Part shown: piece by piece, positions 5,579 through 31,948 of the stretch
How the letters are laid out: each line of letters opens with the position of its first letter
Numbering within the stretch: the stretch's first letter is position 1
Assembly (NCBI GenBank): GCA_041657425.1
Contig: JBBABY010000002.1
Coordinates: 30,001-62,000, forward strand
DNA from: an archaeon
GTDB lineage: Archaea; Iainarchaeota; Iainarchaeia; Iainarchaeales; CSSED10-239
Reading direction: 5' to 3'
DNA length: 32,000 bases
The notes under the pieces: model-generated
The model's input: only the letters and a program-made list of their open reading frames with translations
Databases searched by the model: none
What the model was told of the DNA's origin: nothing
Position numbers and translations under genes: made by a program

Positions 5579-6071
5579 CTTTTTCTTCTACTTTCTTTTC
5601 ATGTTTCTCTTCTATTTTCTTCTCATGCTTTTCTTCTGGCCTTTTCTTTATTTTCATTGTCTCTATAAACTTAATCTTTCTATTTATTTCTTTTAAGTTT
5701 TCACTTAACTTGCTATTTACGTGTTTATCTACTGCTTTATCAAATTTGTCCATTCTTTTAAAGAAATAATTCTCTGCAATTATACCAACACAGAATAAGA
5801 ATGTACCAACTCCAATTAAAGCAAACAAAGAAGCTACAATTTTACCAAGTTCTGTTTTTGGAACAACATCTCCATAACCAATTGTTGTTAAAGTAATAGT
5901 TGTAAAATAGAAAGCATCAACATAACTCCAATGTTCTAGTCTTCTAAAAATAAAAATTCCTATAAAAATAATTGCAACTGCAAAAAAGATTGCAAATAAT
6001 ACTTTTCGTTTATAACTCTTCTCTTGATTATCTAGACTTTCTATGTTTGTGTGGTTTTCTTTGTCAGTCAT
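5559..6071 (-). CDS. Two-TM potassium channel (KcsA/Ion_trans_2-type pore) with charged repetitive tail
   Basis: 170-aa ORF with the selectivity filter TLTTIGYGDV between two hydrophobic helices. The C-terminal tail EEKHEKKIEEKHEKKVEEKDKHESK is low complexity. Its start overlaps the dhs stop in an ATGA at 6071-6068. Confidence 0.8.
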   Translation of the reverse strand: MTDKENHTNIESLDNQEKSYKRKVLFAIFFAVAIIFIGIFIFRRLEHWSYVDAFYFTTITLTTIGYGDVVPKTELGKIVASLFALIGVGTFLFCVGIIAENYFFKRMDKFDKAVDKHVNSKLSENLKEINRKIKFIETMKIKKRPEEKHEKKIEEKHEKKVEEKDKHESK

Positions 6072-7006: not shown

Positions 7007-7045
7007 AATTATTCACTTTCTTTTCTATAATATATTTAAGGCAAA

Positions 7046-7060
7046 GAAATAAATATAAAT
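7046..7060 (-). promoter_or_regulatory. Putative TATA/BRE-type promoter element upstream of dhs (ATTTATATTTATTTC on the minus strand)
   Basis: This 15-mer is identical to 8026-8040 and lies 40-54 nt upstream of the dhs ATG. It contains a TTTATAT archaeal TATA-like core. Confidence 0.3.
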
Positions 7061-7072
7061 GGGGTGGGACAA

Positions 7073-7972
7073 TTAGAAAGAACTAACAAGAATAATCCCC
7101 ACAATCAAAATGATTATTGCGATTGCTTTCTTGATAAATCTGCTTCTGCTTAAATCTTCTTGAAGTATTACGGGATGAGTCTTACTTAGAATGATTGCAA
7201 GTATAAACACCAGAAAAGGATATACTGCAGTTATTGCTATTACTAAAGCAATATTTTTTCCTGATGCAAAAGCATAAAAAAGAAGTAAATATGCTGTAAT
7301 GTATAAAACATTAGAAATCAACTGCAAGTAGATCGTTTTAGTTCCAAACTGTTTAAATGTTTTCTTAAATTCAGAAAAATATATTAATGCAAATACTAAC
7401 ATTCCAATAGCATAGCCAAGTCTAAAATAACTATAAACAACTAACGAATCATTAAATTGCTTCATACAAATACCCATTAAAAAATAAGCAAAAGAAAAGA
7501 CAATTGCAGAAAGAATAACAACCTCTACCCCTTTTGAAAGCCTCAGTTTCTTAAAGTCTTTTATTAAAAATATAAATATTGAGACTACAATCAATACAAT
7601 TCCAATAATGTTAAAAGCATTTAATTTATCTCCTGTTCCAATTACTAGATTTAATATTACTAAAAAAATAATATAGATATAGACAACAGCACTAACAACT
7701 GACACTTCTTCCATCTTAAATGACTTATAGAATAAAAAACACCCATAAGCAAAAATTAACCCTGCAAGCATCGCTAAACCGATAGTAACTAAAGGAATTG
7801 CAGAGGTGCTGCCTTTCAGTAGGTAGATAACTACAAACACTAAAAAATTACAAAGCGCAACAACTAGAAACATTGCCTTGTAATCAGTCATATACTTGTT
7901 GATGGTAAGATAATCAAAATGAACCGCTATTGCTTCAATTAAAGCAGTAAGAAAAGCAAGCAATATCCACAT
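7073..7972 (-). CDS. DMT-superfamily (EamA-like) membrane transporter
   Basis: 299-aa ORF. It is almost entirely hydrophobic, with about 10 predicted TM segments in two similar halves, as in EamA/DMT permeases. No catalytic motifs were seen. Confidence 0.55.
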   Translation of the reverse strand: MWILLAFLTALIEAIAVHFDYLTINKYMTDYKAMFLVVALCNFLVFVVIYLLKGSTSAIPLVTIGLAMLAGLIFAYGCFLFYKSFKMEEVSVVSAVVYIYIIFLVILNLVIGTGDKLNAFNIIGIVLIVVSIFIFLIKDFKKLRLSKGVEVVILSAIVFSFAYFLMGICMKQFNDSLVVYSYFRLGYAIGMLVFALIYFSEFKKTFKQFGTKTIYLQLISNVLYITAYLLLFYAFASGKNIALVIAITAVYPFLVFILAIILSKTHPVILQEDLSRSRFIKKAIAIIILIVGIILVSSF

Positions 7973-8025
7973 GATAATTTTCTCTTGTATGGTAGTTAAT
8001 GTATTAAAAGATAAATATAAGAGCG

Positions 8026-8040
8026 GAAATAAATATAAAT
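8026..8040 (-). promoter_or_regulatory. Putative TATA/BRE-type promoter element upstream of the DMT transporter gene (same 15-mer as 7046-7060)
   Basis: Exact copy of GAAATAAATATAAAT (plus-strand reading), 54-68 nt upstream of the transporter ATG at 7972. It lies in the divergent intergenic region shared with the ORF at 8073. Confidence 0.3.
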
Positions 8041-8072
8041 AGAAAACATTTAATTAAAACTCTTTTGTTTCT

Positions 8073-8279
8073 ATGTTATTTATGATTACAAATACAACAT
8101 TATTATGGCTTATCCCATTAATGATATGGGAAATGGTATGGAAAGGTATTGCTTTATGGAAAGCAGGAAGAAATAATCAACTTACTTGGTTTGTGTTCTT
8201 ACTTATATTAAACACAGCAGGAATTCTACCAATAATCTATATCTATTTCATAAAACCAGAAACAAAAAAGAAGAAATAA
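8073..8279 (+). CDS. Small two-TM membrane protein, DUF5652-like
   Basis: 68-aa ORF. The WEMVWKGIALWKAGRNNQLTWFVFLLILNTAGILPIIYI pattern matches my recollection of the DUF5652 family, which is common in small-genome lineages. Confidence 0.5.
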   Translation: MLFMITNTTLLWLIPLMIWEMVWKGIALWKAGRNNQLTWFVFLLILNTAGILPIIYIYFIKPETKKKK

Positions 8280-8352
8280 GTTTTTTTCTTTCTTTTTATT
8301 TTTTATTTGTGCACACTAATTATTAATTAAAATTAGAAATAATCTAAATTAT

Positions 8353-8493
8353 TTATTGTGGTGTTGACATTTGTGAATTTTTGTAATCTTTAAGACATTT
8401 TATACTACAAAACCATTTATCTTTATACGATAACCCAGAAGCTATTATCTTCTGCTTACATTGTTCACATTCTATTTTTACATCTGCTGGCAT
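8353..8493 (-). CDS. Small zinc-ribbon / TRASH-like protein, 46 aa (MPADVKIECEQCKQKIIASGLSYKDKWFCSIKCLKDYKNSQMSTPQ)
   Basis: Hand-translated and below the ORF-track size cutoff. It has a CxxC ... FCSxxC cysteine pattern. Confidence 0.35.
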   Translation of the reverse strand: MPADVKIECEQCKQKIIASGLSYKDKWFCSIKCLKDYKNSQMSTPQ

Positions 8494-8552
8494 AACCTAC
8501 CACCTCTATCTATAGGTATTATATTAAAGATTGAGCTTTTAAATCCATTTGT

Positions 8553-9005
8553 TTAATCTATTGTAGAAGTAGATTTCAAGTCTTTATAATATTTTTCTGA
8601 AAGATATACTTTTCCCTTTAATAATCTGTCAAGATATACTTTTTCGGGCTTTAGCCCATCTCTTGTTTTTACTGCAAAATACACTTCACAAAGTATTTCT
8701 TTATCTAATGCATTTACAATTAATTGTTTTCTTACATAATGCTCTGGAACACATTCATATTTATCTAATTTACTTATTGCAATAGAATCTATTTCAAAAA
8801 TTATTCCTTCAACTACAGAATTTTCTTTTGGTTCTATATTTGCATAACCCTTCTTTGGGTTTTCAATATTTCTTGGAGTTTTATTAAATCTAAGTTCATA
8901 ACCTAATAGCTTCCCACAAGAAAAAAATTTATAATTAGCGATCCCAATTCTTTCATCCATTTGTCTTTCAGACATATTTGAACCATAAGCAAAATAGTAG
9001 ACCAT
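8553..9005 (-). CDS. Gamma-glutamylcyclotransferase-like (GGCT/AIG2 fold) protein
   Basis: 150-aa ORF beginning MVYYFAYGSNMSERQM, the YxxYGSNM/L N-terminal signature of GGCT. A central EGIIFEI segment is consistent with the catalytic Glu region. Confidence 0.75.
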   Translation of the reverse strand: MVYYFAYGSNMSERQMDERIGIANYKFFSCGKLLGYELRFNKTPRNIENPKKGYANIEPKENSVVEGIIFEIDSIAISKLDKYECVPEHYVRKQLIVNALDKEILCEVYFAVKTRDGLKPEKVYLDRLLKGKVYLSEKYYKDLKSTSTID

Positions 9006-9061
9006 AAATAAATTAGAGACGACACTTATAAAAAGAATTTCTGGGATAATTAGATTAAGAA

Positions 9062-9592
9062 TTAATAAATTTTAAATTCAATTTGATTTAAGTTTTTTCC
9101 CGTAATTATACATTGAGATATCTTTTCTCCAGATTCGTATTTAAGATTTAATTTAACAGAAACTATCATATATCCAGAAAATGGATTAAATATATTACCA
9201 TCTACAGAATTTAATTCCAATATAGAATCTGGAAAAAATATTTTATCTGAGTCCTTAGAATAATTATAATCAAAATAAATCTTTTGTAATGAAACACATA
9301 ATGATTTAGTCATTACTTCTTTTACTTTCCCCGAAAATGTATCAATACTATCATAAAAATTATCCATAAAATATTTTTCATCATTAGATAGTTCTATATT
9401 AAACTCTAGATTTGATGTTTTTAATAACTCATTATTAATAACTCTTAAAGAAGTATTACTACTAACTTTATATTCTCTAGTTTTGTCCGTTGAATTTGAT
9501 GTTACTCTATTTATTGAATTAATAACTATAATCAATAAAATAATTATTACTAAAACAATAATTATCCAATGCCATCTTTTTAATTTTAACAT
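9062..9592 (-). CDS. Hypothetical N-terminally membrane-anchored protein
   Basis: 176-aa ORF with the N-terminal hydrophobic anchor WHWIIIVLVIIILLIIVI. The remainder is Asn/Ser/Lys-rich with no recognisable motif. Confidence 0.5.
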   Translation of the reverse strand: MLKLKRWHWIIIVLVIIILLIIVINSINRVTSNSTDKTREYKVSSNTSLRVINNELLKTSNLEFNIELSNDEKYFMDNFYDSIDTFSGKVKEVMTKSLCVSLQKIYFDYNYSKDSDKIFFPDSILELNSVDGNIFNPFSGYMIVSVKLNLKYESGEKISQCIITGKNLNQIEFKIY

Positions 9593-9664
9593 ATCAAAAT
9601 AATATAATAAAACATTTTTTATATCTATTTACCATAGAAACCAAGAAAAAATTTAAATGAACTA

Positions 9665-9703
9665 ATAGAAAAAAGAAAAAAGAAAAAACCAAATGGTTTT
9701 TTC
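9665..9703 (-). terminator. Hairpin plus T-tract terminator downstream of ftsZ
   Basis: On the minus strand this reads GAAAAAACCATTTGGTTTTTTC, a near-perfect inverted repeat. It is followed by TTTTTTCTTTTTTC and lies about 30 nt after the ftsZ stop. Confidence 0.45.
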
Positions 9704-9732
9704 CTGTTTTGAGATGTATGTGTATGTTACAC

Positions 9733-10833
9733 TTATAACATATCTATACCGAAATCATCGTTATATCTTCCGGATCCTCTACCTGAGTTGCTTACTGGTT
9801 GGTTTCCGCCTGTAAACTTCTTACTTCCTTTTATGAAAGGTGACTTAACTCCTGTAAAGATAGCGATTACTTCTAATTTGTTCTCGAATGTTGGATCGAT
9901 TCTTGCACCCCAAATAACTTGAGCGTTAGGATCAATTTGTTCTGTTAACATTTCACCAACAGCGTTTGCTTCACCTAATGTTAATTCAGTTCCACCTGTA
10001 ATGTGTATTAAACATCCTGTAGCACCTGTAATATCAACATCTAATAAAGCGTTCTTTAAAGTGTCTTCAACTACTTCATCAACTTTATTTACTGATTGTG
10101 ATTCTCCAACAGCAATAACTGATAATCCTTTACCACCCATAACTGTTCTAATATCTGCGTAATCTAAGTTAATTAATGAAGGTTGTGTGATTGTTTCTGT
10201 AATTCCTCTTACTGCTCTTGCGATTACTTCATCAGCAACCTTGAAAGCGTCTTGTACTGGTAAGTTAGGAACTAATTCAACTAATCTGTTGTTATCGATT
10301 ACAACAACTGTATCACATATATCTTTTAAGATGTCTATTCCTTCTTCAGCTTTCTTCATTCTTGCTCTTTCTAAAGCAAAAGGGTATGTAACAATTGCAA
10401 CTACGATTGCACCTTGTTGTTTAGCTATTTGAGCAACTACTGGAGCAGCTCCTGTACCTGTTCCTCCACCCATTCCAGCTGTAATGAATAAAAGATCAAC
10501 ACCATCTAATATTTCTTCTAATGCAGCCTTGGATACTTCAGCAGCCTTTGCACCAACTTCTGGATATGCACCTGCACCAAGTCCGTTTGTAACTGACTTT
10601 CCGATTAATAACTTAGTAATATCATCTGATATAATTCCTAAGTGAGCTCTATCTGTGTTTACAGCAATTAATTCTGCACCTGCAACTCCCATTGCTGAGA
10701 TTCTGTTTACAGAGTTATTTCCTGCTCCACCAACACCTATTACCATAATCTTTGGTGCTGCGAATTCGCCGTCTTTTGCGTATTCAGCATTATTGCTTTT
10801 TGCGCTAACAGCATTGTTTATTAATGACTTCAT
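9733..10833 (-). CDS. ftsZ: Cell division GTPase FtsZ
   Basis: Tubulin signature [19 protein letters not shown], and a C-terminal conserved peptide DDFGIDML. I place the start at the internal Met (MKSLINN...) because GAGGTG lies about 9 nt upstream of it. The 14-codon extension in the ORF track has no such support. Confidence 0.95.
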
Positions 10834-11044
10834 GTTTTTTTTACACCTCATTTTTTCTTTTTTCCACATTATCAAGATTTCTCAATAGAAACCCCACAAA
10901 GAATAAAAAGGAGCCTTTAATACGCTTCTTTTGCTTTATTCTTGGAAAAATACATTCTAATTATATCTATATGAACCAAAAGGTTTTTAAATACTTCTGT
11001 TTTCAAGAAAAAAATCACTATAAAAGTAGAAATGGACACCTAAA

Positions 11045-11300
11045 GTTCGAAAAACAGTCCAACACTTTGCTTAACTTCATAAGATCTCGGATCCGCAACC
11101 CAAAAAGCAATGGGTGTCTAGAATACTGCTGTTTCCTTCCGGACCTCACAGGATTAGCTAGATCATCCACTCTCCTTGGACGAATCGTCGGCAACCTTAC
11201 AAAGGACAAAATATTGCTTATTTCCCTCACTCTAGGCAAAACCCCAGCATATGCGGATTTCTGGTTACAAGAGACCGCAAGCCCCCCAGTCTGTCCAATA
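11045..11300 (-). ncRNA. ffs: Signal recognition particle RNA (archaeal 7S-type), ends approximate
   Basis: A relatively GC-rich island in AT-rich DNA. The minus strand contains GGUCCGGAAGGAAACAGC (complement of 11128-11145), the helix-8 motif with a GGAA tetraloop, closed by UCUAG/CUAGA. A GACG-AUU-CGUC hairpin lies upstream (helix 6-like) and UGUAAC sits near the 5' end (Alu-domain-like). The 5' GGACAG can pair with the 3' CUGUUU, which is followed by a U-run. Confidence 0.8.
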
Positions 11301-11319
11301 TATTTAGGCAGGAAACTGT

Positions 11320-11327
11320 TTATATAG
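11320..11327 (-). promoter_or_regulatory. Putative TATA box for the SRP RNA gene
   Basis: The minus strand reads CTATATAA, centred about 27 nt upstream of the proposed SRP RNA 5' end (about 11296). Confidence 0.35.
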
Positions 11328-15568: not shown

Positions 15569-17743
15569 TTGAAGAAAAATAAAAACACTGGCTTAATCTA
15601 TGTAATAGCAATCTTACTTTTGATTGCAATCGTTTCTATATTTTTTGTAAATCAAAGTATAGGAAATGCAACAAAAGCAATTGATTCTAAAGCTGCTATT
15701 GAAACAATGGCACCAATTACAGAATATCAATCCCAAAACCTAAAAGAAATAACAGAATTTAATATTCCAACTAAAGAACAACTAGACACTACTTTCATTT
15801 CACAAACATTTAAAGAAAATACTGAAATTAACTTAAAATTAGATAAACCAATAAATGCACTTTCAGTAACTGGTAATGCAACTTTGCTATCAGAAGCTGG
15901 GCTTTTAAGAATTATACTTGTAGATTCAGAAAAGCATGAATATTTAGTTTATGAAACAAGTAGTCTATTAACAGAAAACAGTAAAGACACAAAGTTTGAA
16001 AACATTTGTGAAGAAACTTGTGTTCTTGATAAACCAATAACTGCAGTCTCAATGAAAATACAAGTAGAAGATGCAGTATTAGATATCTTTTCAATAAACA
16101 CACTTCCTGAAGATAAATTATTTACTGAAATTAAAGATATTAAAAGTTATAAACAACAAACTTTAGAAGCACAAAGCAAAGCAAAAATAGAAAAATACAA
16201 TTCTGCTCAAAAGAGTTGGACAGCAGGAGAAACATCTGTTTCTAATCTTTCATATGAAGAACAGAAAAGATTATTTACAAAAGAAGATGGAACAATACCA
16301 GAATATCTTCCAAACCTTCAAGGATTTTTATATTACAAAGGCGGGATATTCACTTTAAAAGAAAGCACAAATACAAATAATTCAAGAAACAATAATACTA
16401 ATACTACAATACAACCACCAATAACTCCCCCAGAAGCAGAACCAAATTATATACTTCCAGACTCTTGGGATTGGAGAAATGTACATGGAGAAAACTGGAA
16501 TACTTCTATTAAAAATCAAGGCCCATTCGGCACTTGCCAAAATTTTGCAACAATTGCATCTTTAGAAGCAGTTATAAACTTGTATTATAATAAACATCAA
16601 AATTCAGATTTATCTGAAAGAATATCACTATGTAATTATGAATTATACAATGGTGCGGATTTTAATATAACAACTAATCCTTGTTATGGTCTACAGTCAC
16701 CAAGTTGGTTTGGTTGTATAAATAAATTTTATGGAATAACTGACGAATTGTGCTCACCATATAGTTTTGAAGATATGGAGTGTACATATTGTAATGATCA
16801 TTCAAATAGAACCTGGAAAGTTTCAGATTTTTTTGGGCTTTATCCACAAGATTATATTCACACAGCAGTTTGGGATGAAGAAACACAGACAATAGTTACA
16901 AATGGACCATTAATAGATAGGTTTAAAGAAAAATTAATTAGCATAGATTTACTGAAAACAAATTTAATTAAATTTGGGCCACTTTCCACTATTTATACCC
17001 CTATGGATCACGGAATGTCGCTTGTGGGATATATTAATAATAATTGGGATATAAATGTTGTGAATAGTTGTGATATCAATTCTCTTTGCTATAATGCGCA
17101 ATGTATATCTGAATCGTGTAATAATTTTGATGAACAAATTACTAATTCATATAATGGTTATCCATTTACCTATGAGCAACAGTTTTGGAAATCCGGAACA
17201 TTTAATTATAGATGTGAAAATAATCCAGAAGATAATAATAATTTAATGTGGGACGGGGCATATAACCTCCAAGATTGTGAAAACAGCCAAATATCTATAA
17301 ATGGGCAATGTCTTAATGTTTCTACAGACACCATCGAATTTTTAACTTGTAACAGATTAACTAATGAGATATTAAAATACAAGTTAAATCATGAGGGGGT
17401 TATTTGGATATTTAAAAATAGTTGGGGCGAAAATTTTGGAGAAAATGGATATGTAAAAATTTATGATAATAATATAACTCATTTTTTAGCAGGAATTTAT
17501 AAAACCCCAATAACGCCACCAACAAATCAATCGTATTGGCCAGCTGGCTTTAATAACACTATAAATTGTGAAGATAAAGATGGAGATAATTATTGTAACT
17601 GGGGAATATCTGAAGAAAAACCAAGTACTTGCCCTTCTTTCTGCAAAGCAGAGAAAGATTGTGATGATTCTAATCCTGACCTTTTAGGGTTTAAATCTAA
17701 AACAAATTTAAATTGTAAATATAAGTATGAAATTGAAAGATAA
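15569..17743 (+). CDS. Membrane-anchored or secreted papain-like (C1 family) cysteine peptidase with Cys-rich insertion and C-terminal Cys/Asp-rich module
   Basis: 724-aa ORF with a TTG start and the N-terminal anchor GLIYVIAILLLIAIVSIFFV. Papain signatures are WDWR..IKNQGPFGTCQNFA (Cys323, codon 16535-16537), MDHGMSLVGY (His481, codon 17009-17011) and FKNSWGENFGENGYVKI (Asn617, codon 17417-17419). Confidence 0.8.
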   Translation: MKKNKNTGLIYVIAILLLIAIVSIFFVNQSIGNATKAIDSKAAIETMAPITEYQSQNLKEITEFNIPTKEQLDTTFISQTFKENTEINLKLDKPINALSVTGNATLLSEAGLLRIILVDSEKHEYLVYETSSLLTENSKDTKFENICEETCVLDKPITAVSMKIQVEDAVLDIFSINTLPEDKLFTEIKDIKSYKQQTLEAQSKAKIEKYNSAQKSWTAGETSVSNLSYEEQKRLFTKEDGTIPEYLPNLQGFLYYKGGIFTLKESTNTNNSRNNNTNTTIQPPITPPEAEPNYILPDSWDWRNVHGENWNTSIKNQGPFGTCQNFATIASLEAVINLYYNKHQNSDLSERISLCNYELYNGADFNITTNPCYGLQSPSWFGCINKFYGITDELCSPYSFEDMECTYCNDHSNRTWKVSDFFGLYPQDYIHTAVWDEETQTIVTNGPLIDRFKEKLISIDLLKTNLIKFGPLSTIYTPMDHGMSLVGYINNNWDINVVNSCDINSLCYNAQCISESCNNFDEQITNSYNGYPFTYEQQFWKSGTFNYRCENNPEDNNNLMWDGAYNLQDCENSQISINGQCLNVSTDTIEFLTCNRLTNEILKYKLNHEGVIWIFKNSWGENFGENGYVKIYDNNITHFLAGIYKTPITPPTNQSYWPAGFNNTINCEDKDGDNYCNWGISEEKPSTCPSFCKAEKDCDDSNPDLLGFKSKTNLNCKYKYEIER

Positions 17744-19044: not shown

Positions 19045-19058
19045 AAAGGAGATTTTTT

Positions 19059-19131
19059 GGTCCCGTAGTCTAGCGGTTATGACGTTACCTTCACATGGTA
19101 GAGATCCCCGGTCCGAACCCGGGCAGGACCA
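19059..19131 (+). tRNA. tRNA-Val (anticodon CAC), no encoded CCA
   Basis: Hand-folded 73-nt cloverleaf. Acceptor GGTCCCG/CAGGACC has one C-A mismatch at 6:67. The anticodon stem is TTACC/GGTAG with loop TTCACAT. The T-arm is CCCGG-TCCGAAC-CCGGG and the discriminator is A. A T-rich tract follows. It lies 14 nt after aspS. Confidence 0.8.
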
Positions 19132-19140
19132 TCTTTTATT

Positions 19141-19716
19141 TTATCTAACTTCTATCTGTTCTAATTCATCTATATAAAACTCAGGAAGATAACAATCTCT
19201 AGAACCTTTTACAAGCGTTTGTTTATAACTATTTCCTGGTTTATCGTTAATTGCTAAATTGTTTACTTGGATATATATCTCTGCAGAAACTTTTTTCCCA
19301 CTTGGTAAAAAAACATCAATCCATTCTCTGTTGTAACTATTTAGATTTCTATCTCTGTCTTCTCTATATCCTTCAACAATATCAAGTTTTGCTATCTCTT
19401 CATCACTTAAAAGATAAAGACAACCATAAACGTCGTGCCCTGTTGTTGGAATCACACTACCAACCTCTCTTGGAAATATCAATCTATAGTCTTCTAGTTT
19501 TGCATAAGTTACTGGAACAATAGAATTATTATCAATCCTTTGTCTTAAAAGATTAATATCCATATTACTTCCATAACCAAAATAATAAGTTTTGTTAATA
19601 TCTTGTATTGCTTCTTTTACTATTACTTGCTTATCTCTAGTGTAATCTGCAAGAACTAGAAAGATGGTTCCTAAAAGTAACCCAATACAAAACAATATTA
19701 TTAATTTCTTAAACAT
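19141..19716 (-). CDS. Membrane-anchored gamma-glutamylcyclotransferase-like protein
   Basis: 191-aa ORF with the N-terminal TM helix LIILFCIGLLLGTIFLVLA. This is followed by YYFGYGSNMDINLLRQR (GGCT signature) and VEGY, as in the AIG2/GGCT fold. Confidence 0.7.
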   Translation of the reverse strand: MFKKLIILFCIGLLLGTIFLVLADYTRDKQVIVKEAIQDINKTYYFGYGSNMDINLLRQRIDNNSIVPVTYAKLEDYRLIFPREVGSVIPTTGHDVYGCLYLLSDEEIAKLDIVEGYREDRDRNLNSYNREWIDVFLPSGKKVSAEIYIQVNNLAINDKPGNSYKQTLVKGSRDCYLPEFYIDELEQIEVR

Positions 19717-20453: not shown

Positions 20454-23400
20454 TTATTTTGGTAATTTCCCACCATGTGCATTAGATAATGTTGAGATTA
20501 ATGAAGATTGCTCTTTTGTTTTCAATCCATAATAATACATATAATATTCTTTCTTAAATGCAAAATAGTTAGCTAATTTTAAAGTAATTGTTTTGATTGT
20601 GCCTATACCGCCATCTAATTCTGAAGAATATAGTTTAATTCCCGAATACATTACTAGCGTTCCAGTATATTTATATTTATAAATTACTGCAAAATTAAAA
20701 TTAATTGAATCAGAATGATCGTATACGTTTTTATGACTACCCCAGAATGGTTCTCTTATTCTCCCAGCAATATAATTCTCTTGAGAATTATCTATTAATC
20801 TTCTCCCGATATATCTTTTTAATCCCGCAGAAAAAACAACAGACGCATATTTACTTTGATTTGTCCAAACTAAATCTAATAACGCAATAATTTCTTTTCT
20901 ACTATCAATAGTTTTAAGATTTCCTGTAAGTTTTGTAACATCCCCAATTTTAGAATCTTTCTCAATTATAGAACTTAAATCTGCATCTCTAAAATCATTA
21001 ACCATTTCATCAAATGTATATTTATTTGCTTCATATTGTTTCCATGGTGCTTTCTCAATTTGCGCAATTCCATATGCGGGTTTCCCTATAAGAGCATTAC
21101 CATATTGTGATTGAGAACCAGTTATATTAGTAGAAGTCCCACTTTCTTGAGCAATACTTCCCCAAAATTGTGCAGTTTCTTCTAAACTATAATTAAATGC
21201 TTTTGTAACTCTAAAAACAATATAATTAAATTCACTAGATTGCGGTTTTACTACGTGTGCTTCATATTCTACATCTAATGCACTTTTTAAGAAACACGGA
21301 AATTTTGGATCAATTATATTACATTTATATGCATAATTTAAACTAACAGAAGTATTGTCATTTAACATTCTAAAATTTGAAATTAAATTATTTATATAAT
21401 TATCAACATCAGTCATGGTCTTTTTAGGAATTGATGATTTTATTATTGGTTTTCTTGCAGCCACAAGTGAATATTCAATATCATCAGTAATTAATGATTC
21501 TTCAATTTCTAAAAGTTTTCCTAAACCGCTGCTCTTATTAGAAATATAAACATAAGTTCCATTTGGAACAGAATTAAATAATGTAATCACATCATTATTT
21601 AACATTCTTATACAACCCAGAGATTTCTGTTGGCCCATAAATTTTTCATAATTTGTTCCATGTATATATATGCCTCTATAAACAGTATTTCTATTTCCAA
21701 TTTCACAACCAACTCCGATATTGCCTTTCTCTAGACCATCAAGAAAAAGTTTTCTAGTAACTACTTTTGCAACTCCTGAATTAAGTGTTGCAAATACTGG
21801 CTTCCCATTTTCTGTTTCACAACCGTTTTGTCCTATTATTTGTAATTTCTCACAATCTTTTCCTTGTTTTGCAATAATTTTAAATAATCCAATTGGCGTC
21901 TTTGAACTATCATTTTCACAACCAAATCCATTAACTCCTGTAGAAATTAGATGCTGTCCAATAATTTGTATTTTGCCTTGTGTTTTCTTTACTAAAAATA
22001 ATCGTTTATATTTCGCTAAGATTATTATCATCGCTTTATTATTGTCAAGAATTATTTGATTATCATATTCTATTGAATTTTCATTTGCATAATTTTTCTT
22101 ATAATAAATATCAAACTGCTTAGCAAGTATTTCATTATAAGTACTCTCTAAATCTTTATACATTTGTTTATCAATTGCGGTTTTTTGTGCACTTATACTT
22201 GCAAATTGGGTATTAAATGAATCAAAAGTATAACTTGGCAATTCTTCTACAGATTCCATTTCAAACTTACCAAGACTTATTCCTTCTTCTTTTGCTTTAT
22301 TTTTTATTTGCGCATACAAATCTTTAGAGATCATAATTTCTCTAATCTCACCATCTTCATACAATCCATAATCATTTCTTCCTCTTGCTACTGTTTTTAA
22401 GAACGCATCTAATTTTTCTATTTTAAATCTAGTACCCCAAGAATGCGCTATATAATGTGCATTACCAATCTTGCCTAAGTAAATAACAACATGACTATAC
22501 TTTTTATCAACATAGCTAGTATTTAGATGTTTAATACCCAAAATTGCACCAGGAATTAAATAATTCCAATTTTCTTCTAATAATCCCTTATCACTACTCC
22601 ATAAACTAATATTATTTTTTTGAACAGAAAGATTCCAGGCATTTGCAGAATCAAAATTATATCCAAATTGAAATATTGCAAAATTTCGGACAAATGCTGA
22701 ACAAAAATTAACTTTAGGATTTAACCAAAAATCTTTTGTTACAATTGTTGGAGTTTGAGACACACAACTTAATTTAAATGTAGGTTTAAACAAATTTTTA
22801 TTGTCTATTGTTTTAACGACATTACAAATATTATAATTATCAAATTCAAAATATTTATTAAATTCAGGAACAGATTTATTTAATTTAGAATATACTAAAT
22901 AATTATTTTTTAATGTTTCCAATTTTTTATCTATAATAACATTATTTAAATATATTTGCGCAGATTCTTGAGCAACCGCGTTATTCTGATTCTCATTTGG
23001 CACAATATAAATTGCAAATTGTGTTGTTGGTTGAACGGATGTGTTTGAAAATACAGTTTCTTGAAATAATTTATTTTGAGTTGTTACTTGCATTTGATTA
23101 ATTGGAGAATCTGCATATATTTGATTTTTATTTCCCTCTATAAATGAATCTATATTATTCCAAACTAGAAATTCATCATCTTTAAACACAAAACATTTAT
23201 TGCCTAAGCTAATATCTGCAATAATAGAAGAAATATTTTGTTTTTGATTATCTGTTCCATTTATCTTGTAAATATATTCTGTTTCATTTTTGTCAAAGTC
23301 CACATCGACCCAATTAAATAATAACGGAGAATTTGATTTCAATAATATTGGAGCCATTTTCAAATTTGGTTTGGAATACGGATAAATAATTGTCGTTTGT

Positions 23401-26297
23401 TGCTTACCGCCAATCCCACCATTTAATTGTTCTTGTTCTTGAGAAATTAAAGTTTTAGTATAATTATTATAATGCCCATCTTGCACAACAGACACATTTA
23501 AAGTATTCAGATAATCTTCTGTTATAACTAACGGATATTTATTCGATGTTTCTACACCTTTTGAATTAATATTAAGAATATAACCATCTTGTATATCAGA
23601 ATAATCCTCTATCTTCTCTGTAATTTCTATTCCAGATTTAACAGAATTACTTTTAGAAATAAATAATTCATTATTATAGTTATAACTTACTGGATTAATT
23701 GTTTCTTTGAATAAATTATTATATGCAAAATAACTATTATTAGAATAATAATCTATACTTCCAAGAAATAAAGAATCAGTAATTTCTTCAATACTATAAT
23801 TTGCGTCTTTTTTATCTGCATCTGCTATTTCTAATCTTATAACATATGTCTTAGGATCAAAGATTTGAATCACAGAATTATAATTATCTAAATTAAGAGT
23901 CCAATTATTGGATAAAAAAGGAGTATATTTATTTGTAAGAATATTATTTGTTTCTGCATCTAAAGCTCCGAAAGGTTTAAAATTGTAAATATAATAATCT
24001 AATCCTTCTGCATAGAAAATATTTGTAAAACCAGAAATTACTTGTGATTGATTGTAAAGATATCTTAATTGAGAGTCTTTTTGATTATTTGCATCTGAAA
24101 AATATGCCAATTGGTTTTGTTGATTATTTAGATAACTTTCAATTGTAAATTGATAATGAGTGTGATAATCTGTAGATTTATAATATTCGTTTGGTAAATA
24201 AACTACAGAAAAATATTTATCAAAATCTTTATCTGTAACTTTAGGTTGCCAATTGTAAAGATCAACAACAGTTAATTTCGTTAAAGGTTCAGGAAGAGCC
24301 AGAAGTATTTCTTTTGTTTGGGCAAGAGAGTCATCAATTGTAGTATTTGTTATTTTATTTGCTTGAGAATTGATATCAAAATCTAAACTTGTAAATGTTC
24401 TAGCAATCAATTTATTTTTCCCTAACCTTAACTTAATTCCTCCAAGTTCTGTAAATTCTCTAGATTTTATATAATCTAATTTCTTTGAACTTGCGATTCT
24501 AAACTGATCTTGATCTATATAATATTCTCCATAATCAAATATCCCAGAATAAATCTTACTTTCATCCCATTCAAAGAACAATCTATTCATTCCAAATGTT
24601 TCTAGTGCTTTATTAGTAAATCCTCCAATAGATTTGCCATCAGGAACTAAACACACATTTGATTTATCCATTATATATTCAACAATTAGTTTTTTCTTTT
24701 CTTCGAAAATAGATTTGCCACAATTTGAAAATCCATTTTCATTAATTCCATAATCTTTTATATCACAAGAAGGGCAATAGAATTCAATTATATTTCTATT
24801 TGTTTGAAAAATATTATATTTTACAAACTGTTCATTTGTTAATTGTAAAATATTGGAACTATATACTCCCGTAACTATAAAATTAGAATCAACTTCAATT
24901 ATTTGCAAAGAAAAATTAGCCACATTTGCTTTTAATTCTAAATTTAATTTATCTCCTTGTTTTGAAATAGAATTTCTATCAATCTTAATATATTGAGTAA
25001 GATTTTCTTTTGTAACTGTTATCTTAGAACTACTTTTTACAAAACTAGTCATTACTGGAATGGTTTTAGATTGAGGCGCATCAATTGCAACATATATTTC
25101 TTTTGTTGTAGTAGATGGGTACAGCCCAATACTTAAAATCTTGTCTTTTGTAACATTTAAATCAGTTATAACAAAAGTTCTTAACATATTGTAAGAGTAT
25201 GGTTTAAAGATTTGTGTTTCTTCTTTTCTAGTATAATTAATATCTAATAATTTATAACTTATTAGTTTATTTGTATCAAAAGTTTTATTACTTCCAATAT
25301 CTGAATCAAAACTAGAATTAATTAAAATATTTTCAAAATTGGAATTTGTATTTTCTTCAAGTTCTATTGAAGGAATTATTTCAATAGTAACTAAAGAATT
25401 ATCTAATTCTCCTTCATTTCCTGTTATCCCCTCAGGCACTAGTACATTTGGCTCTTCTATTGTTTCCGTAGATTGTTCTGTATTAAAAGTTACATTTATA
25501 TTAAACTTAGAAGATTCTATATTTTCTAAATTAAACATATTTTCTTCAGAAACAAATCTATTTCCAAAAATATCTCCCGCATATTTGGTGTTTTTTTGAA
25601 TTGCCTTTTTATCAACTGTTGAAGATATATCTTCTCTTGAAAATATATTTTTTCCAATATCATACCTTGCAATATAAACATTAATCTGAGTGGTATCTTT
25701 TGTAATCTCATTTTTCGCTATAACCCCTTTAGCAATTGCAGACTCTAATTGTTTTAAATTAAAGTATTTCTCCTCAACTCCCGAATCTTGTATCCCAATA
25801 TAATTTTCTTTAACGCCAGTATTTGAAATATAAGATTTTAAGAGTAAACTCCCACTTTGATTCTTTTCTAGATCTATATTTTTTATTTTAAATAAAGTTA
25901 TATTATCTTTTATTCTACTATCTATATTTTCTAATAATTGAAAATTACTTTCTTTATAATCATACATCATCTTAGACATTTCATAATCGCTCATTTTTGT
26001 AGCTAGCGATTCATTTGTTTTATCAAAATAAACAATTGCAATAACAATGTCTGTTTCTTTTAGATCATTTGTTTTATCTATGTAATCTATTTCTATTGTT
26101 TTTTTAATTGTTTTTTCATCAAACTCATCTGTACTTTCAGTTATTTCTCCAAACACTCGACCAATTTGTATTCCATTTTCTACAACTTTAGAATCAGAAA
26201 CTAAAGAAAATGAAGAATTATATATATTTAAGGTGTTTGCATAAATTGGAGTAATTAAAAGTATTAAAATCAAGAAAAATAATATTTGTTTTCGCAT
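20454..26297 (-). CDS. Giant secreted protein (1947 aa): unknown Asn-rich N-terminal about 1180 aa, then NlpC/P60-like, YkuD L,D-transpeptidase-like and SLT lytic-transglycosylase-like domains
   Basis: Uninterrupted 5.8-kb ORF with the signal-like N-terminus MRKQILFFLILILLITPIYA. Motifs are NFCSAFV...YSHVVIYLG..AHYIAHSWG (NlpC/P60-like), KTPIGLFKI...IYIHGTN..KSLGCIRM (YkuD) and SIAQESGTS...YGIAQIEK (SLT). Its stop is 1 nt from the stop of the convergent EndoIII-like gene. Confidence 0.9.
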   Translation of the reverse strand: MRKQILFFLILILLITPIYANTLNIYNSSFSLVSDSKVVENGIQIGRVFGEITESTDEFDEKTIKKTIEIDYIDKTNDLKETDIVIAIVYFDKTNESLATKMSDYEMSKMMYDYKESNFQLLENIDSRIKDNITLFKIKNIDLEKNQSGSLLLKSYISNTGVKENYIGIQDSGVEEKYFNLKQLESAIAKGVIAKNEITKDTTQINVYIARYDIGKNIFSREDISSTVDKKAIQKNTKYAGDIFGNRFVSEENMFNLENIESSKFNINVTFNTEQSTETIEEPNVLVPEGITGNEGELDNSLVTIEIIPSIELEENTNSNFENILINSSFDSDIGSNKTFDTNKLISYKLLDINYTRKEETQIFKPYSYNMLRTFVITDLNVTKDKILSIGLYPSTTTKEIYVAIDAPQSKTIPVMTSFVKSSSKITVTKENLTQYIKIDRNSISKQGDKLNLELKANVANFSLQIIEVDSNFIVTGVYSSNILQLTNEQFVKYNIFQTNRNIIEFYCPSCDIKDYGINENGFSNCGKSIFEEKKKLIVEYIMDKSNVCLVPDGKSIGGFTNKALETFGMNRLFFEWDESKIYSGIFDYGEYYIDQDQFRIASSKKLDYIKSREFTELGGIKLRLGKNKLIARTFTSLDFDINSQANKITNTTIDDSLAQTKEILLALPEPLTKLTVVDLYNWQPKVTDKDFDKYFSVVYLPNEYYKSTDYHTHYQFTIESYLNNQQNQLAYFSDANNQKDSQLRYLYNQSQVISGFTNIFYAEGLDYYIYNFKPFGALDAETNNILTNKYTPFLSNNWTLNLDNYNSVIQIFDPKTYVIRLEIADADKKDANYSIEEITDSLFLGSIDYYSNNSYFAYNNLFKETINPVSYNYNNELFISKSNSVKSGIEITEKIEDYSDIQDGYILNINSKGVETSNKYPLVITEDYLNTLNVSVVQDGHYNNYTKTLISQEQEQLNGGIGGKQQTTIIYPYSKPNLKMAPILLKSNSPLLFNWVDVDFDKNETEYIYKINGTDNQKQNISSIIADISLGNKCFVFKDDEFLVWNNIDSFIEGNKNQIYADSPINQMQVTTQNKLFQETVFSNTSVQPTTQFAIYIVPNENQNNAVAQESAQIYLNNVIIDKKLETLKNNYLVYSKLNKSVPEFNKYFEFDNYNICNVVKTIDNKNLFKPTFKLSCVSQTPTIVTKDFWLNPKVNFCSAFVRNFAIFQFGYNFDSANAWNLSVQKNNISLWSSDKGLLEENWNYLIPGAILGIKHLNTSYVDKKYSHVVIYLGKIGNAHYIAHSWGTRFKIEKLDAFLKTVARGRNDYGLYEDGEIREIMISKDLYAQIKNKAKEEGISLGKFEMESVEELPSYTFDSFNTQFASISAQKTAIDKQMYKDLESTYNEILAKQFDIYYKKNYANENSIEYDNQIILDNNKAMIIILAKYKRLFLVKKTQGKIQIIGQHLISTGVNGFGCENDSSKTPIGLFKIIAKQGKDCEKLQIIGQNGCETENGKPVFATLNSGVAKVVTRKLFLDGLEKGNIGVGCEIGNRNTVYRGIYIHGTNYEKFMGQQKSLGCIRMLNNDVITLFNSVPNGTYVYISNKSSGLGKLLEIEESLITDDIEYSLVAARKPIIKSSIPKKTMTDVDNYINNLISNFRMLNDNTSVSLNYAYKCNIIDPKFPCFLKSALDVEYEAHVVKPQSSEFNYIVFRVTKAFNYSLEETAQFWGSIAQESGTSTNITGSQSQYGNALIGKPAYGIAQIEKAPWKQYEANKYTFDEMVNDFRDADLSSIIEKDSKIGDVTKLTGNLKTIDSRKEIIALLDLVWTNQSKYASVVFSAGLKRYIGRRLIDNSQENYIAGRIREPFWGSHKNVYDHSDSINFNFAVIYKYKYTGTLVMYSGIKLYSSELDGGIGTIKTITLKLANYFAFKKEYYMYYYGLKTKEQSSLISTLSNAHGGKLPK

Positions 26298-26648: not shown

Positions 26649-27674
26649 ATGACAACAATAAACAAAATCATGACCTTATTTGTTTTAGCAATACTTGCTT
26701 TAGCAATAACTCCAAGGTTATTTGCGAATGAACTTAACGCAACTAGTTTTCAAACTAACAATACAAATATAAGTTCACAAAATTCAAACTCAAAAAATTA
26801 CAACTATACAATGTATAAGATAGAAATACCTTGTGCAATTGATAGAAGTAAAATTATATTGCCTGTAAAAACAGACGGGGATATTTCAAATGACACAACT
26901 TACAAAGTAATGTGTAACTCAAGCGCTTATTTCAATCAAGAAACAGGGATATATCATTTAAAAAAAAATGAAGGATATTATGTAAACGTAATATTAACTA
27001 ATGATTCTTTAAATAAAACTGATATTTCAGAAATTTCTGCAGTTACATTAAATATATATCCAGAAAATGCAAAAACTGCGTGTTTTACAAAAACAATGAA
27101 TGTCGATCCAAACAATAAGATTAAATTTGCTACAAAATTTAGTTATGTACATGAAAACGATTCAGAAACATTTGGATTAGAAAATATGACTGGTTTAATT
27201 GAATCTTGTGGATTAAATACAAAATTAATCTTTCAACCAACAATTACACAAAATAACGGAAATGATCTTATAATTCAAAATACAGGAGATATTCAACGTG
27301 TAATCATTGATTCAGACAATTCAAACATTATTGCAGAAAATGCAAGAAACAAAGAAATAATCTCTAATGAATTGAGTACAAAGCCAAAGGAACAGTTAAC
27401 TACTGCTTCAAAAGCAAATAAAGAAAGAGCATCAACTATTTTCATTTCTAAAGAAAATGTTACTCAAAAAGTAATTGATATTTCTCAAATATTAGAAGTG
27501 AATAAAATTGCTTCAAATAAGGTTGTTGGAGATATTACTTTAGAAACAGATTCTGATGTTCCAACATACGTCTTTGAAGTTAGAGAAAGAAGAAAATTAT
27601 TTGGATTTATTCCTTTCGGTAAAGAAAAGATAATCGAAAAGAGAATATCTGCAATCAAAGAGATAAAGGAATAG
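26649..27674 (+). CDS. Secreted Asn/Thr-rich protein of unknown function (weak PepSY-like C-terminus)
   Basis: 341-aa ORF with the signal peptide IMTLFVLAILALAITPRLFA and a strong GGAGG SD. The C-terminal VPTYVFEVRERRKLFGFIPFGKEK weakly resembles PepSY-type YxVxV...GxxxxIPV segments. Confidence 0.6.
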   Translation: MTTINKIMTLFVLAILALAITPRLFANELNATSFQTNNTNISSQNSNSKNYNYTMYKIEIPCAIDRSKIILPVKTDGDISNDTTYKVMCNSSAYFNQETGIYHLKKNEGYYVNVILTNDSLNKTDISEISAVTLNIYPENAKTACFTKTMNVDPNNKIKFATKFSYVHENDSETFGLENMTGLIESCGLNTKLIFQPTITQNNGNDLIIQNTGDIQRVIIDSDNSNIIAENARNKEIISNELSTKPKEQLTTASKANKERASTIFISKENVTQKVIDISQILEVNKIASNKVVGDITLETDSDVPTYVFEVRERRKLFGFIPFGKEKIIEKRISAIKEIKE

Positions 27675-27748: not shown

Positions 27749-28648
27749 ATGTTTAAAAAAAGACTTACAATAATTGTTTTGTTACTAATATTACTGATTA
27801 ATTATAATTATGCTTATTCTATAATTCAACAAGACACTACAATTGAAAACGATAGTTTTGATATCTATAAATTTACTGATCACTTAGCTATTTCAGACAT
27901 AAACTCAGAAACAAAAGAATTAGTGTTTAATATTCCGCCAGTTTATGACTTAATGGTTAAAATAAATGGAATCAAACACACAAATATTTCATACACAACA
28001 GACACACTTACAATTAATATATCCAATCTTTCTATTTCGAATAAATCACTAAATCTAGATTTGATATATCTTACTGATTACTATACAAGTAAACAAGAAG
28101 GAATTTGGCAATTATCTTATATCTCTAGATATGCAAATAAACTAGGTAATATTGAAATAACATTGCCACGAAATAGTAAACTAAATAACACTTCTGAAAA
28201 CCCAATTGCTATAGAAACAATAAACGATTCTTTAATTCTTAAATTTTCTAACCTCAATAGCATTACTATTGATTATATTAATACTCCAACTAAAACCAAT
28301 AATTATTCTTTTACCCTTATTACTAGTATTATTATTCTTGTTATTGGAACAATTACGTTTATCATCTTTAAACAAAAGAACAAAAAAGAAAAAACAATTG
28401 TTCAAAATAAAAGCACTAATGAAAATCTTCTTTTAGGATTAAATGAAAATGAACAAAAGATTATGAAAATAGTTATTGCTGAAGAAGGACAAACACAGAA
28501 AAGTATTTCTGGAAAACTCTTACTTCCAAAAGGCACAATCTCAAGAAATATTCAAAAACTAATTGATAAAGGGTATCTTGAAATTAAGAAATACGGAATA
28601 AGTAATAAAATCTTCCTTGGAGAAGTATTCAGGAAGAATCCTAAGTAA
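27749..28648 (+). CDS. Membrane-tethered winged-HTH transcriptional regulator (COG2512-like: extracytoplasmic domain - TM - cytoplasmic wHTH)
   Basis: 299-aa ORF. It has an N-terminal signal or anchor, an Asn-rich region of about 165 aa, the TM helix FTLITSIIILVIGTITFIIF, and then LNENEQKIMKIVIAEEGQTQKSISGKLLLPKGTISRNIQKLIDKGYLEIKK, typical of MarR/ArsR-like wHTH. Confidence 0.7.
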   Translation: MFKKRLTIIVLLLILLINYNYAYSIIQQDTTIENDSFDIYKFTDHLAISDINSETKELVFNIPPVYDLMVKINGIKHTNISYTTDTLTINISNLSISNKSLNLDLIYLTDYYTSKQEGIWQLSYISRYANKLGNIEITLPRNSKLNNTSENPIAIETINDSLILKFSNLNSITIDYINTPTKTNNYSFTLITSIIILVIGTITFIIFKQKNKKEKTIVQNKSTNENLLLGLNENEQKIMKIVIAEEGQTQKSISGKLLLPKGTISRNIQKLIDKGYLEIKKYGISNKIFLGEVFRKNPK

Positions 28649-28696
28649 AAGAAAGTATATTTAATATCTTGTTTCTATTATCTATTGGTGATGTTT

Positions 28697-29170
28697 ATGA
28701 ATAAAATAATTATTGGAATTATTATGGCAATAGTTGTAGTGTCTGGAATTGTTGTAGGCTTTTTCTTAGCAAACAATCAAACAGACAACGCACAAATAGC
28801 AAATCCTGCTTCAGTTAATTGTGAAAGATTAGGGGGAACATTAACTATTGTAACTCAAGAAGACGGTAGTCAAATAGGAATGTGTACTGCTTTAAATGGA
28901 TCACAATGTGAAGAATGGGCGTTAATGAGAGGAGATTGTACATTAAGACTAGATACAATACCTCAAGGAAACCTAAGTACTTGTACAATAGATGCAGACT
29001 GTATTCCTTTACCTTCAGAATGCCACGCAAAAACGTGTATTAATAAAATATATGAAAAACAATTTGTAAAACCAGAAGTATGTACCCTGATGTTTGATAC
29101 AACTGCTGCTTACAATCCTGCGGATTGTGAATGTGTTACTAATACTTGTGTTAATAAGAATATTAACTAA
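28697..29170 (+). CDS. DUF333 (putative hemolysin-type) domain protein with additional Cys-rich C-terminal domain, N-terminal TM anchor
   Basis: ANPASVNCERLGGTLTIVTQEDGSQIGMCTALNGSQCEEWALMRGDC matches the DUF333 pattern (NPAsvyC...GG...G.C.fpdGs.CeEWaf.RGeC). The C-terminal half has 8 further Cys. The start is set at ATG 28697, with GGTGA 5 nt upstream. The ORF-track start at 28685 is a TTG. Confidence 0.65.
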   Translation: MNKIIIGIIMAIVVVSGIVVGFFLANNQTDNAQIANPASVNCERLGGTLTIVTQEDGSQIGMCTALNGSQCEEWALMRGDCTLRLDTIPQGNLSTCTIDADCIPLPSECHAKTCINKIYEKQFVKPEVCTLMFDTTAAYNPADCECVTNTCVNKNIN

Positions 29171-31866: not shown

Positions 31867-31948
31867 TGCAGAAGGCAGGATTCGAACCTGCGAAGCACTA
31901 AGCACCAGATCTTGAGTCTGGCCCCTTTGACCGCTCGGGTACTCCTGC
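31867..31948 (-). tRNA. tRNA-Leu (anticodon CAA), long variable arm, no encoded CCA
   Basis: Hand-folded on the minus strand. The acceptor is GCAGGAG/CTTCTGC with one G-U pair. The anticodon stem is CCAGA/TCTGG with loop CTCAAGA. The variable region is 13 nt. The canonical T-arm is GCAGG-TTCGAAT-CCTGC and the discriminator is A. Confidence 0.85.

Follow-up and report, generated by a model that had tools for sequence, protein, structure and literature searches.

The window analysed here, a stretch of 32,000 nucleotides from an archaeal contig (JBBABY010000002.1, positions 30,001 to 62,000), encodes on its minus strand a giant protein of 1947 amino acids (aa), which we read, with reasonable though by no means full confidence, as a Sec-exported multi-enzyme murein hydrolase aimed at bacterial walls. 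An earlier, sequence-only reading of this DNA had proposed three murein-acting catalytic domains fused in one giant secreted protein of an apparent archaeon; of these, the YkuD domain is firm, the NlpC/P60-like domain is good at the profile level and the C-terminal domain is suggestive. The gene and the parts of its product on which the argument is built are the following.

20454..26297, minus strand: giant gene, one uninterrupted open reading frame (ORF) of 1947 aa plus stop codon
26232..26297, minus strand: signal-peptide-like N-terminus, aa 1-22 (MRKQILFFLILILLITPIYANT), from hydrophobicity
24438..25310, minus strand: N-terminal module ‘M’, aa 330-620, detected with jackhmmer, without Pfam match
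22320..22781, minus strand: putative NlpC/P60-like papain-fold cysteine peptidase domain, aa 1173-1326, from profile-profile comparison
22701-22703, 22491-22493 and 22443-22445, minus strand: proposed NlpC/P60-like triad Cys1199, His1269 and His1285, from the alignment with MepS
21543..22007, minus strand: YkuD (L,D-transpeptidase-fold) domain, aa 1431-1585, Pfam PF03734, with His1546 at 21660-21662 and Cys1562 at 21612-21614
20457..21302, minus strand: lysozyme-like domain (putative muramidase or lytic transglycosylase), aa 1666-1947, a rare archaeal family
21144-21146, minus strand: putative catalytic Glu1718, followed by Ser1719 and G1743-x-x-Q1746, from the family alignment

The single ORF was confirmed, together with all eight motifs and the five codons (those of Cys1199, His1269, His1546, Cys1562 and Glu1718) that had been read from the letters. 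In the whole protein a Kyte-Doolittle value above 1.6 is reached at one place only, the N-terminus (aa 1-27, MRKQILFFLILILLITPIYANT...), which looks like a Sec signal peptide, and nearly all apparently full-length members of the family begin with a similar hydrophobic segment; we infer export from this, and the protein appears to be secreted, as had been claimed. The N-terminal 1150 residues or so, which belong to no recognisable family, would probably act as a stalk or target-binding part, whereas the C-terminal 780 residues would hold three enzyme modules in series, directed at bacterial peptidoglycan. In this mechanism the NlpC/P60-like peptidase (Cys1199/His1269/His1285) would cut stem peptides, the YkuD-fold enzyme (His1546/Cys1562) would most likely hydrolyse the L,D bond of meso-diaminopimelate (mDAP)-D-Ala or of 3-3 cross-links, and the lysozyme-like domain would cleave glycan strands with Glu1718 as its single acid catalyst. 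Jointly the modules may perforate the wall of a neighbouring bacterium locally, or dissolve it, and the archaeon might gain attachment, access to the cytoplasm, the killing of the neighbour or the release of nutrients.

The YkuD domain matched PF03734 with 47.4 bits against a gathering cut-off of 23.4 (E 3.8e-12; the match covers profile positions 11-146 of 146), well above the threshold, and can be taken as genuine. Alignment of the segment YIHGTNYEKFMGQQKSLGCIRM with the solved B. subtilis YkuD placed His1546 on His123 and Cys1562 on Cys139, in agreement with the 16-residue His-Cys spacing to which the sequence-only reading had drawn attention, and the motif YIHGTN...KSLGCIRM is retained in the family members P0002, P0008 and P0009 and in the orthologue at locus L003. 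A search of the PDB with the single sequence of aa 1150-1947 returned YkuD entries only, and tblastn of the same residues against 50,697 phage genomes matched the YkuD part alone, in an ORF of an Acinetobacter jumbo phage, which leaves a phage origin of the NlpC-like and C-terminal domains unsupported.

The best NCBIfam model was that of the L,D-carboxypeptidase ElsL (E 2.2e-23, nearly full-length); since it scored 82.8 bits against a cut-off of 270, the giant protein is no ElsL orthologue, although it shares with A. baumannii ElsL and B. subtilis YkuD the HG(T/S)...GCIR(M/L) active site and the distance between His and Cys. ElsL is cytoplasmic and YkuD carries a LysM domain, and neither context is found in the giant protein. 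A further parallel is provided by the type VI secretion system (T6SS) effectors Tae5/Tlde1, which also employ a YkuD-related His/Cys domain, as an offensive L,D-carboxypeptidase against foreign murein; these are, however, small proteobacterial DUF2778 proteins delivered by the T6SS together with an immunity protein, whereas the domain described here is a classical PF03734 domain within a secreted giant archaeal protein (bioRxiv 10.1101/2020.02.18.954545). Because ElsL is the nearest curated model, Tae5/Tlde1 set an offensive precedent and the domain is located between two lytic modules, the re-crosslinking of stem peptides that had been envisaged for the YkuD domain is unlikely for a secreted protein, and by analogy a function as L,D-carboxypeptidase or endopeptidase is more plausible for the domain than one as transpeptidase.

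The evidence for the NlpC/P60-like domain comes from an alignment of 12 such domains, comprising that of the giant protein, those of its orthologues P0008, P0009 and P0002, those of the more distant P0024, P0026 and P0028, and five stand-alone proteins of 140-200 aa that were retrieved with the family profile (P0036-P0039 and P0041) and that retain the Cys and both His. His1269 is invariant in this alignment, together with a W, a G, two Y and a further G, and 11 of the 12 sequences have the Cys. A canonical NlpC/P60 alignment was assembled from E. coli MepS (NC_000913) together with those domains of P0014 and P0025 that are significant in Pfam, and hhalign matched the two with 93.1% probability (E 3e-7, 86 columns), while the controls (SLT, lysozyme and reversed NlpC alignments) reached 0.0-0.3%. 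The paired segments were NFCSAFVRNF with IDCSGFVQRTF, YSHVVIYLG with RHVGIYIG and YIAHS with FVHAS (giant protein first), and Cys1199, His1269 and His1285 fall on the Cys/His/His triad of MepS. Other searches gave less: Pfam NLPC_P60 matched two of the 12 members at E about 0.009, the profile of the alignment found MepS in the PDB weakly (E 0.25-0.41), and a 7-sequence NlpC-like profile had no matches in the PDB. An NlpC/P60-like Cys-His-His domain is thus probably present at the level of profile-profile comparison. It shares with E. coli MepS (Spr) and PF00877 the order of the triad and its context (CS(A/G)FV..., ...SHV.IY.G..., ...I.H.), but differs in lying below Pfam detection, in a Cys-His spacer of 70 residues with a family-specific A-W motif, and in the Ser that stands for Cys in some relatives.

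The C-terminal domain belongs to a rare family, a profile search of 1.84 billion (1.84e9) representative proteins having yielded 28 relatives in all. In an alignment of 24 sequences with 21-63% identity to the giant protein nine columns are invariant, including E79-S80 (Glu1718-Ser1719) and the G104 and Q107 of the AYGIAQI motif. Searched against the PDB, the family profile retrieved about 250 sequences at E<10, the best 60 of which were all C-type lysozymes (E 0.007-0.13), and in three lysozyme alignments ES corresponded to the lysozyme ES pair (Glu35-Ser36 of hen egg-white lysozyme, HEWL) and GIAQIN..W to GIxQIN..W. Weak Pfam matches occurred among the 24 members to Lys (four members, best E 2.5e-4), Phage_lysozyme2 (four) and SLT (two, E 0.017 or weaker), three families that we take to form a single Pfam clan. 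In hhalign comparisons the family reached 55% with lysozyme C (E 1.2e-4) and a weak 21.6% with E. coli Slt70, MltC, MltD and EmtA (E 1e-3, 44 columns), where ES and G-x-x-Q aligned with the ES and GLMQ of Slt70; in the same set-up the known homologous pair of SLT and lysozyme C scored 11%, and unrelated or reversed alignments 0.1%. The 24 domains matched in PHROGs only unannotated families, with E above 0.002.

An AlphaFold model of the domain built with the 24-sequence alignment had a predicted local distance difference test score (pLDDT) of 83.3 and a predicted template modelling score (pTM) of 0.85, the model with a 3-sequence alignment (pLDDT 49) being unusable. In the confident model the Glu-Ser pair closes a helix on its C-terminal side, and the G..Q lies in the short beta-hairpin that comes next, an arrangement that is presumably the lysozyme/SLT topology. 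The same elements, Glu-Ser at a helix end and, some 17-25 residues on, G-(I/L)-x-Q-I in a beta-hairpin, are shared with C-type lysozymes (GH22), SLT (GH23) and PF18013, from which the domain departs in its size of about 280 aa, its extra helices, an Ala at the position of HEWL Asp52 and the lack of a significant Foldseek match. A clear AYNxG-type third SLT motif was not found in it. Since the Asp52 equivalent is Ala, as in SLTs, a single-carboxylate mechanism is favoured for the putative glycosidase. Taken together, the domain is probably lysozyme-like, a description that we prefer to SLT, which as a family label fails in both Pfam and the fold search.

The arrangement of these domains across the family offers evidence of another kind. 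Within the N-terminal part, the shared portion of module ‘M’ (about aa 345-515) ends in FYCPSC and is common to P0009, P0002 and nine shorter relatives, as detected with jackhmmer in the collected set. In the nine shorter relatives the module stands directly upstream of the lysozyme-like domain; in the clade of the giant protein the two are apparently separated by an insertion of about 1100 residues that contains the NlpC-like and YkuD domains. In ten proteins of the collected set a lysozyme-like domain occurs together with a peptidase module, which is a canonical NlpC/P60 domain in two (P0014, E 5e-18; P0025, E 2e-7) and the NlpC-like domain in the others, where P0005, P0006 and P0010 gave no more than a partial match. 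Because the fusion of lysozyme-like domain and peptidase recurs, it lends independent support to a murein-directed function. YkuD occurs in a small clade only, namely in the giant protein, P0008, P0009, the L003 orthologue, P0002 and the tandem paralogue of P0002. P0002 itself (1315 aa) has a true stop after YkuD and is without the lysozyme-like domain. At locus L014 (also L015) its gene (2232-6179) is part of a tandem duplication, about 530 bp from that of a 1544-aa paralogue (6712-10179), and at L001 a second giant gene (7777-11235, 1152 aa) with a faint NLPC_P60 match lies beside that of the distant relative P0005, which suggests that clusters of giant proteins exist in some archaeal metagenome-assembled genomes (MAGs).

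A number of observations weigh against the interpretation as a multi-enzyme murein hydrolase. Pfam NLPC_P60 matched neither the whole protein nor the excised aa 1150-1366, and Pfam SLT (PF01464) neither the whole protein nor its excised segments; Pfam and NCBIfam scans of the whole protein and of four excised segments recovered YkuD only, and the Pfam scans of the protein and its segments showed none of the known wall-binding domains (LysM, SH3b, PG_binding, SPOR). The nucleophile Cys of the NlpC-like domain is replaced by Ser in P0002 and its tandem paralogue, and His1269 by Gln in P0005, and because of these replacements the domain, judged by its residues, is not uniformly canonical in its catalysis. 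About 44 columns of a motif region carry the sequence tie of the C-terminal domain to lysozymes. Foldseek searches with the confident model gave no significant match in the PDB (best E 0.71, template modelling (TM) score 0.17) and none in BFVD, where the best entry was a ‘putative endolysin’ (E 0.45, TM 0.31-0.39) and where tail-lysozyme, GH19 and LT_GEWL entries were among the non-significant matches only. Finally, the view of the genome extends to 32 kb, and the archaeon may have a murein or murein-like envelope of its own.

For the two assignments made by the sequence-only reading the outcome is accordingly divided. Recovery of NlpC/P60 by Pfam, which it had itself put forward as a test, failed, and the assignment is upheld by the hhalign match with the triad on that of MepS; SLT was recovered neither by Pfam nor by Foldseek, and what stands are the invariant Glu-Ser/G-x-x-Q and weak signals from the lysozyme superfamily. 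The missing Pfam matches, the Cys to Ser and His to Gln replacements and the C-terminal model without a significant structural neighbour could also be accommodated if YkuD were the sole real enzyme and the NlpC-like and C-terminal domains were degenerate or unrelated binding modules of what is mainly a surface adhesin or structural protein. We regard this as quite improbable, given that the NlpC-like triad and G-I-A-Q-I are kept in the giant protein, P0008, P0009 and the L003 orthologue, that Glu-Ser and G..Q are invariant in a family with identities as low as 21%, and that the hhalign match to NlpC/P60 was accompanied by clean controls.

That the gene belongs to an archaeon is indicated by several lines of evidence, one of which is an RNA gene located elsewhere in the window.

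11029..11301, minus strand: archaeal signal recognition particle (SRP) RNA, Rfam RF01857, 124.7 bits against a gathering score of 96.5

The contig also encodes deoxyhypusine synthase, FtsZ and the threonyl- and aspartyl-tRNA synthetases (ThrRS and AspRS); the nearest named relatives of the AspRS are from MAGs labelled “archaeon”, Candidatus Diapherotrites (57%), Woesearchaeota (54%) and Aenigmarchaeota. The archaeal neighbourhood seen in the sequence-only reading is thereby borne out by SRP RNA, deoxyhypusine synthase and the relatives of AspRS, and the host is most likely a DPANN-like archaeon. The identical protein is present in NCBI (MFA5745458.1 / MFA7709111.1, under the record title ‘MAG: L,D-transpeptidase [archaeon]’), as well as in assemblies from JGI and ENA, a 142-kb contig being the longest, and an independent 10.7-kb ENA contig carries it with the same flanking genes. 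A family scan of GTDB species genomes yielded six loci, all six in archaeal MAGs and one of them labelled Candidatus Iainarchaeum, and the NCBI and GTDB records carry the label archaeon. The archaeal MAG at L003 holds an orthologue with 50% identity across aa 281-1940, in the gene order secreted 341-aa protein, giant gene, HhH-GPD glycosylase, GGACT-like gene and AspRS; its neighbour genes are 45-87% identical to their counterparts in the window, the archaeal-type AspRS being 87% identical. Around the P0009 gene (L016/L017) a winged helix-turn-helix protein, an unannotated upstream gene of the same size, HhH-GPD and GGACT are retained, and beside that of P0002 (L014) both upstream neighbours. 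The guanine-plus-cytosine (GC) content is 23-34% throughout the window and even over the giant gene and its flanks, with no break.

A DPANN-type archaeon should lack a wall of the bacterial type. If the gene lay on a bacterial or chimeric contig there would be no archaeal paradox, and it is true that its recognisable domains are of bacterial type and that the UvrB on the same contig is bacterial-type too. Such an origin is extremely improbable given the archaeal SRP RNA and deoxyhypusine synthase, the identical protein with the same neighbours in independent assemblies, the synteny with an 87%-identical archaeal-type AspRS in another archaeal MAG, the six of six archaeal loci and the even GC; because of the archaeal markers, the independent assemblies, the conserved synteny and the GC, the contig is archaeal and a chimeric or bacterial origin is for practical purposes ruled out, so that the possibility of a chimeric assembly raised by the sequence-only reading can be set aside. 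The UvrB gene (2244-4178, plus strand) is complete, with UvrB_inter, UvrB and UVR domains. Two tRNA genes were called, tRNA-Leu (31867-31948) by both ARAGORN and Rfam, and tRNA-Val(CAC) (19058-19133, plus strand) by ARAGORN, the latter being absent from the Rfam list at the gathering threshold. A plus-strand ORF of 112 aa (21721..22059) is taken as spurious because it is antisense inside a gene conserved along its whole length, and a 167-aa ORF (10824-11327, plus strand) that overlaps the minus-strand SRP RNA gene is almost certainly no gene.

Upstream of the giant gene and divergent from it, across an intergenic region of 351 bp, two further genes form part of the conserved block.

26649..27674, plus strand: 341-aa protein with signal-peptide-like N-terminus, divergent from the giant gene, no Pfam family
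27749..28648, plus strand: 299-aa protein, hydrophobic at the N-terminus and in internal segments, with a TrmB/MarR-like winged helix at the C-terminus

In L003 the 341-aa gene is kept beside the giant gene, with 45% identity, and an unannotated gene of the same size stands there in L014 and L016; the 299-aa gene is kept at the same position in L002, L014 and L016. The former product may be a partner of the giant protein and the latter a membrane-bound regulator. At the far end of the conserved block lies a gene for a small exported protein (28685-29170, plus strand), the L016 counterpart of which is at 584-958; DUF333 is annotated at the counterpart positions in L002 and L016, and the L016 protein also has Kazal-type protease-inhibitor domains. 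On the other side of the giant gene a 724-aa protein of the papain family (Peptidase_C1; 15569-17743, plus strand) with an N-terminal hydrophobic segment is probably an exported hydrolase, and the ORF at its position in L003 bears no similarity to it. A GGACT/AIG2-like gene of gamma-glutamyl cyclotransferase type (19141-19716, minus strand) is found two genes away from the giant gene, also in L002, L003 and L016/L017; a tie between it and the processing of gamma-D-glutamyl wall peptides is pure speculation.

This neighbourhood bears on the use to which the enzymes would be put. With the same biochemistry, the protein might digest free peptidoglycan debris or muropeptides of dead bacteria, the amino sugars and amino acids from which would nourish an auxotrophic archaeon, a scavenging role that would be in line with the conserved GGACT/AIG2-like gene, with further secreted hydrolases close by such as the C1 peptidase, with ElsL, an L,D-carboxypeptidase of cell-wall recycling, as the best curated match of YkuD, and with the fact that no wall-binding or adhesin domain was recognised by Pfam. 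We hold it to be unlikely, as a 1150-residue N-terminal extension on a giant single polypeptide would be unusual for a nutritional exo-enzyme, as the giant gene evolves faster than its neighbours (50% vs 66-87% identity), which is typical of interaction proteins, and as related large DPANN proteins have been interpreted in terms of contact with host or prey (PMC8204110, PMC9723730). Judged from the sequence, the purpose may be attachment or penetration, killing or the scavenging of wall debris.

The nature of the target deserves separate consideration. An L,D peptide bond, and with it a D-centre, is required by YkuD-fold enzymes, and the peptides of pseudomurein have only L-amino acids, while its beta-1,3-linked talosaminuronic acid is not cleaved by enzymes of the lysozyme type. 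Because of these requirements of the YkuD and lysozyme chemistry, which does not fit pseudomurein, bacterial murein is favoured as the substrate over pseudomurein. In addition, no pseudomurein endoisopeptidase-type family was matched in the Pfam scans, and archaeal peptidoglycan hydrolases are nearly absent in pseudomurein producers (PMC12352652). An archaeal envelope as the target, be it the pseudomurein of a methanogen host or a wall polymer of the archaeon itself, would accord with the cultivated DPANN described in PMC8204110, which are episymbionts of other archaea, and with the 32 kb over which the genome was viewed, and is nevertheless very improbable.

Bacterial murein as the substrate also invites comparison with known multi-enzyme systems. 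Phage endolysins and tail lysins combine CHAP with amidase or lysozyme with M23 domains, measure 250-900 aa and have known binding domains. Such multi-catalytic lysins resemble the giant protein in uniting several bond-specific murein hydrolase domains in one polypeptide that acts from outside the target, but the latter is the product of a chromosomal archaeal gene with conserved housekeeping synteny, and a phage match was obtained for YkuD only.

Closer precedents are found in the archaea themselves. Large extracellular proteins with murein transglycosylase domains were described in Pacearchaeota and Woesearchaeota and proposed to bind or degrade bacterial walls (Castelle et al., 2021; PMC8204110, where earlier sightings of such proteins are credited to Rinke 2013 and Castelle 2015), and large GH23 proteins of Woesearchaeota have been linked to predation (Vigneron et al., 2022; PMC9723730). 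Like these (fam00969 in PMC8204110; GH23 in PMC9723730), which are giant proteins of up to about 3000 aa from DPANN with small genomes, predicted to be extracellular, bearing a domain that cleaves glycan strands and proposed to act in episymbiosis or predation, and in keeping with what defines fam00969, the protein described here exceeds 1000 aa (1947), has a signal-peptide-like N-terminus and lies on an archaeal contig with a DPANN-like AspRS. The differences are that the published proteins were found through standard SLT/GH23 annotation, whereas the glycosidase-like domain of the giant protein escapes Pfam SLT and fold search, and that the giant protein carries YkuD and NlpC/P60-like domains, which are unmentioned in PMC8204110 and PMC9723730. 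More recently, modular peptidoglycan hydrolases were reported in about 5% of archaeal genomes, notably in Nanoarchaeota, and two such enzymes of halophilic archaea were found to kill a bacterium (Strock et al., 2025; PMC12352652). The giant protein agrees with these in being archaeal, in its signal-peptide-like N-terminus, signal peptides being frequent among them, and in its bacterial-type catalytic families; the survey, however, required a known catalytic and a known wall-binding domain (PMC12352652), whereas the giant protein has three catalytic-type domains and no recognised binding domain, because of which the screen would probably have missed it.

In the literature searched, no archaeal protein of this kind with a YkuD-fold domain, no such three-domain fusion and no Pfam-invisible lysozyme-like family was found. 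The sequence-only reading knew of no characterisation of the fusion; its central idea, that of archaea attacking or attaching to bacteria, is already published (PMC8204110, PMC9723730, PMC12352652), and only the three-domain combination appears to be undescribed. A bolder claim can be advanced tentatively, namely that the C-terminal domain represents a new glycan-cleaving family, so far seen in archaeal MAGs only, that has just the Glu-Ser/G-x-x-Q core in common with lysozymes and a predicted structure unmatched by solved folds, and that in one small clade it was joined with the NlpC/P60-like and YkuD domains into a murein-breaching tool of three activities, which would be the first archaeal anti-bacterial use of the L,D-transpeptidase fold.

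As the underlying idea has been published before, the advance is an incremental one and not a conceptual one. If the three domains act on murein, the giant protein would provide a concrete and clonable candidate for the way in which wall-less DPANN archaea physically engage bacteria, a question that has so far been based on SLT/GH23 annotation alone. Two bond specificities, those of a stem-peptide endopeptidase and of an L,D-carboxypeptidase or endopeptidase, would be added to the archaeal anti-murein repertoire, and a glycosidase family missed by standard annotation would mean that surveys based on Pfam domains undercount such weapons, which may also include enzymes of antibacterial interest.

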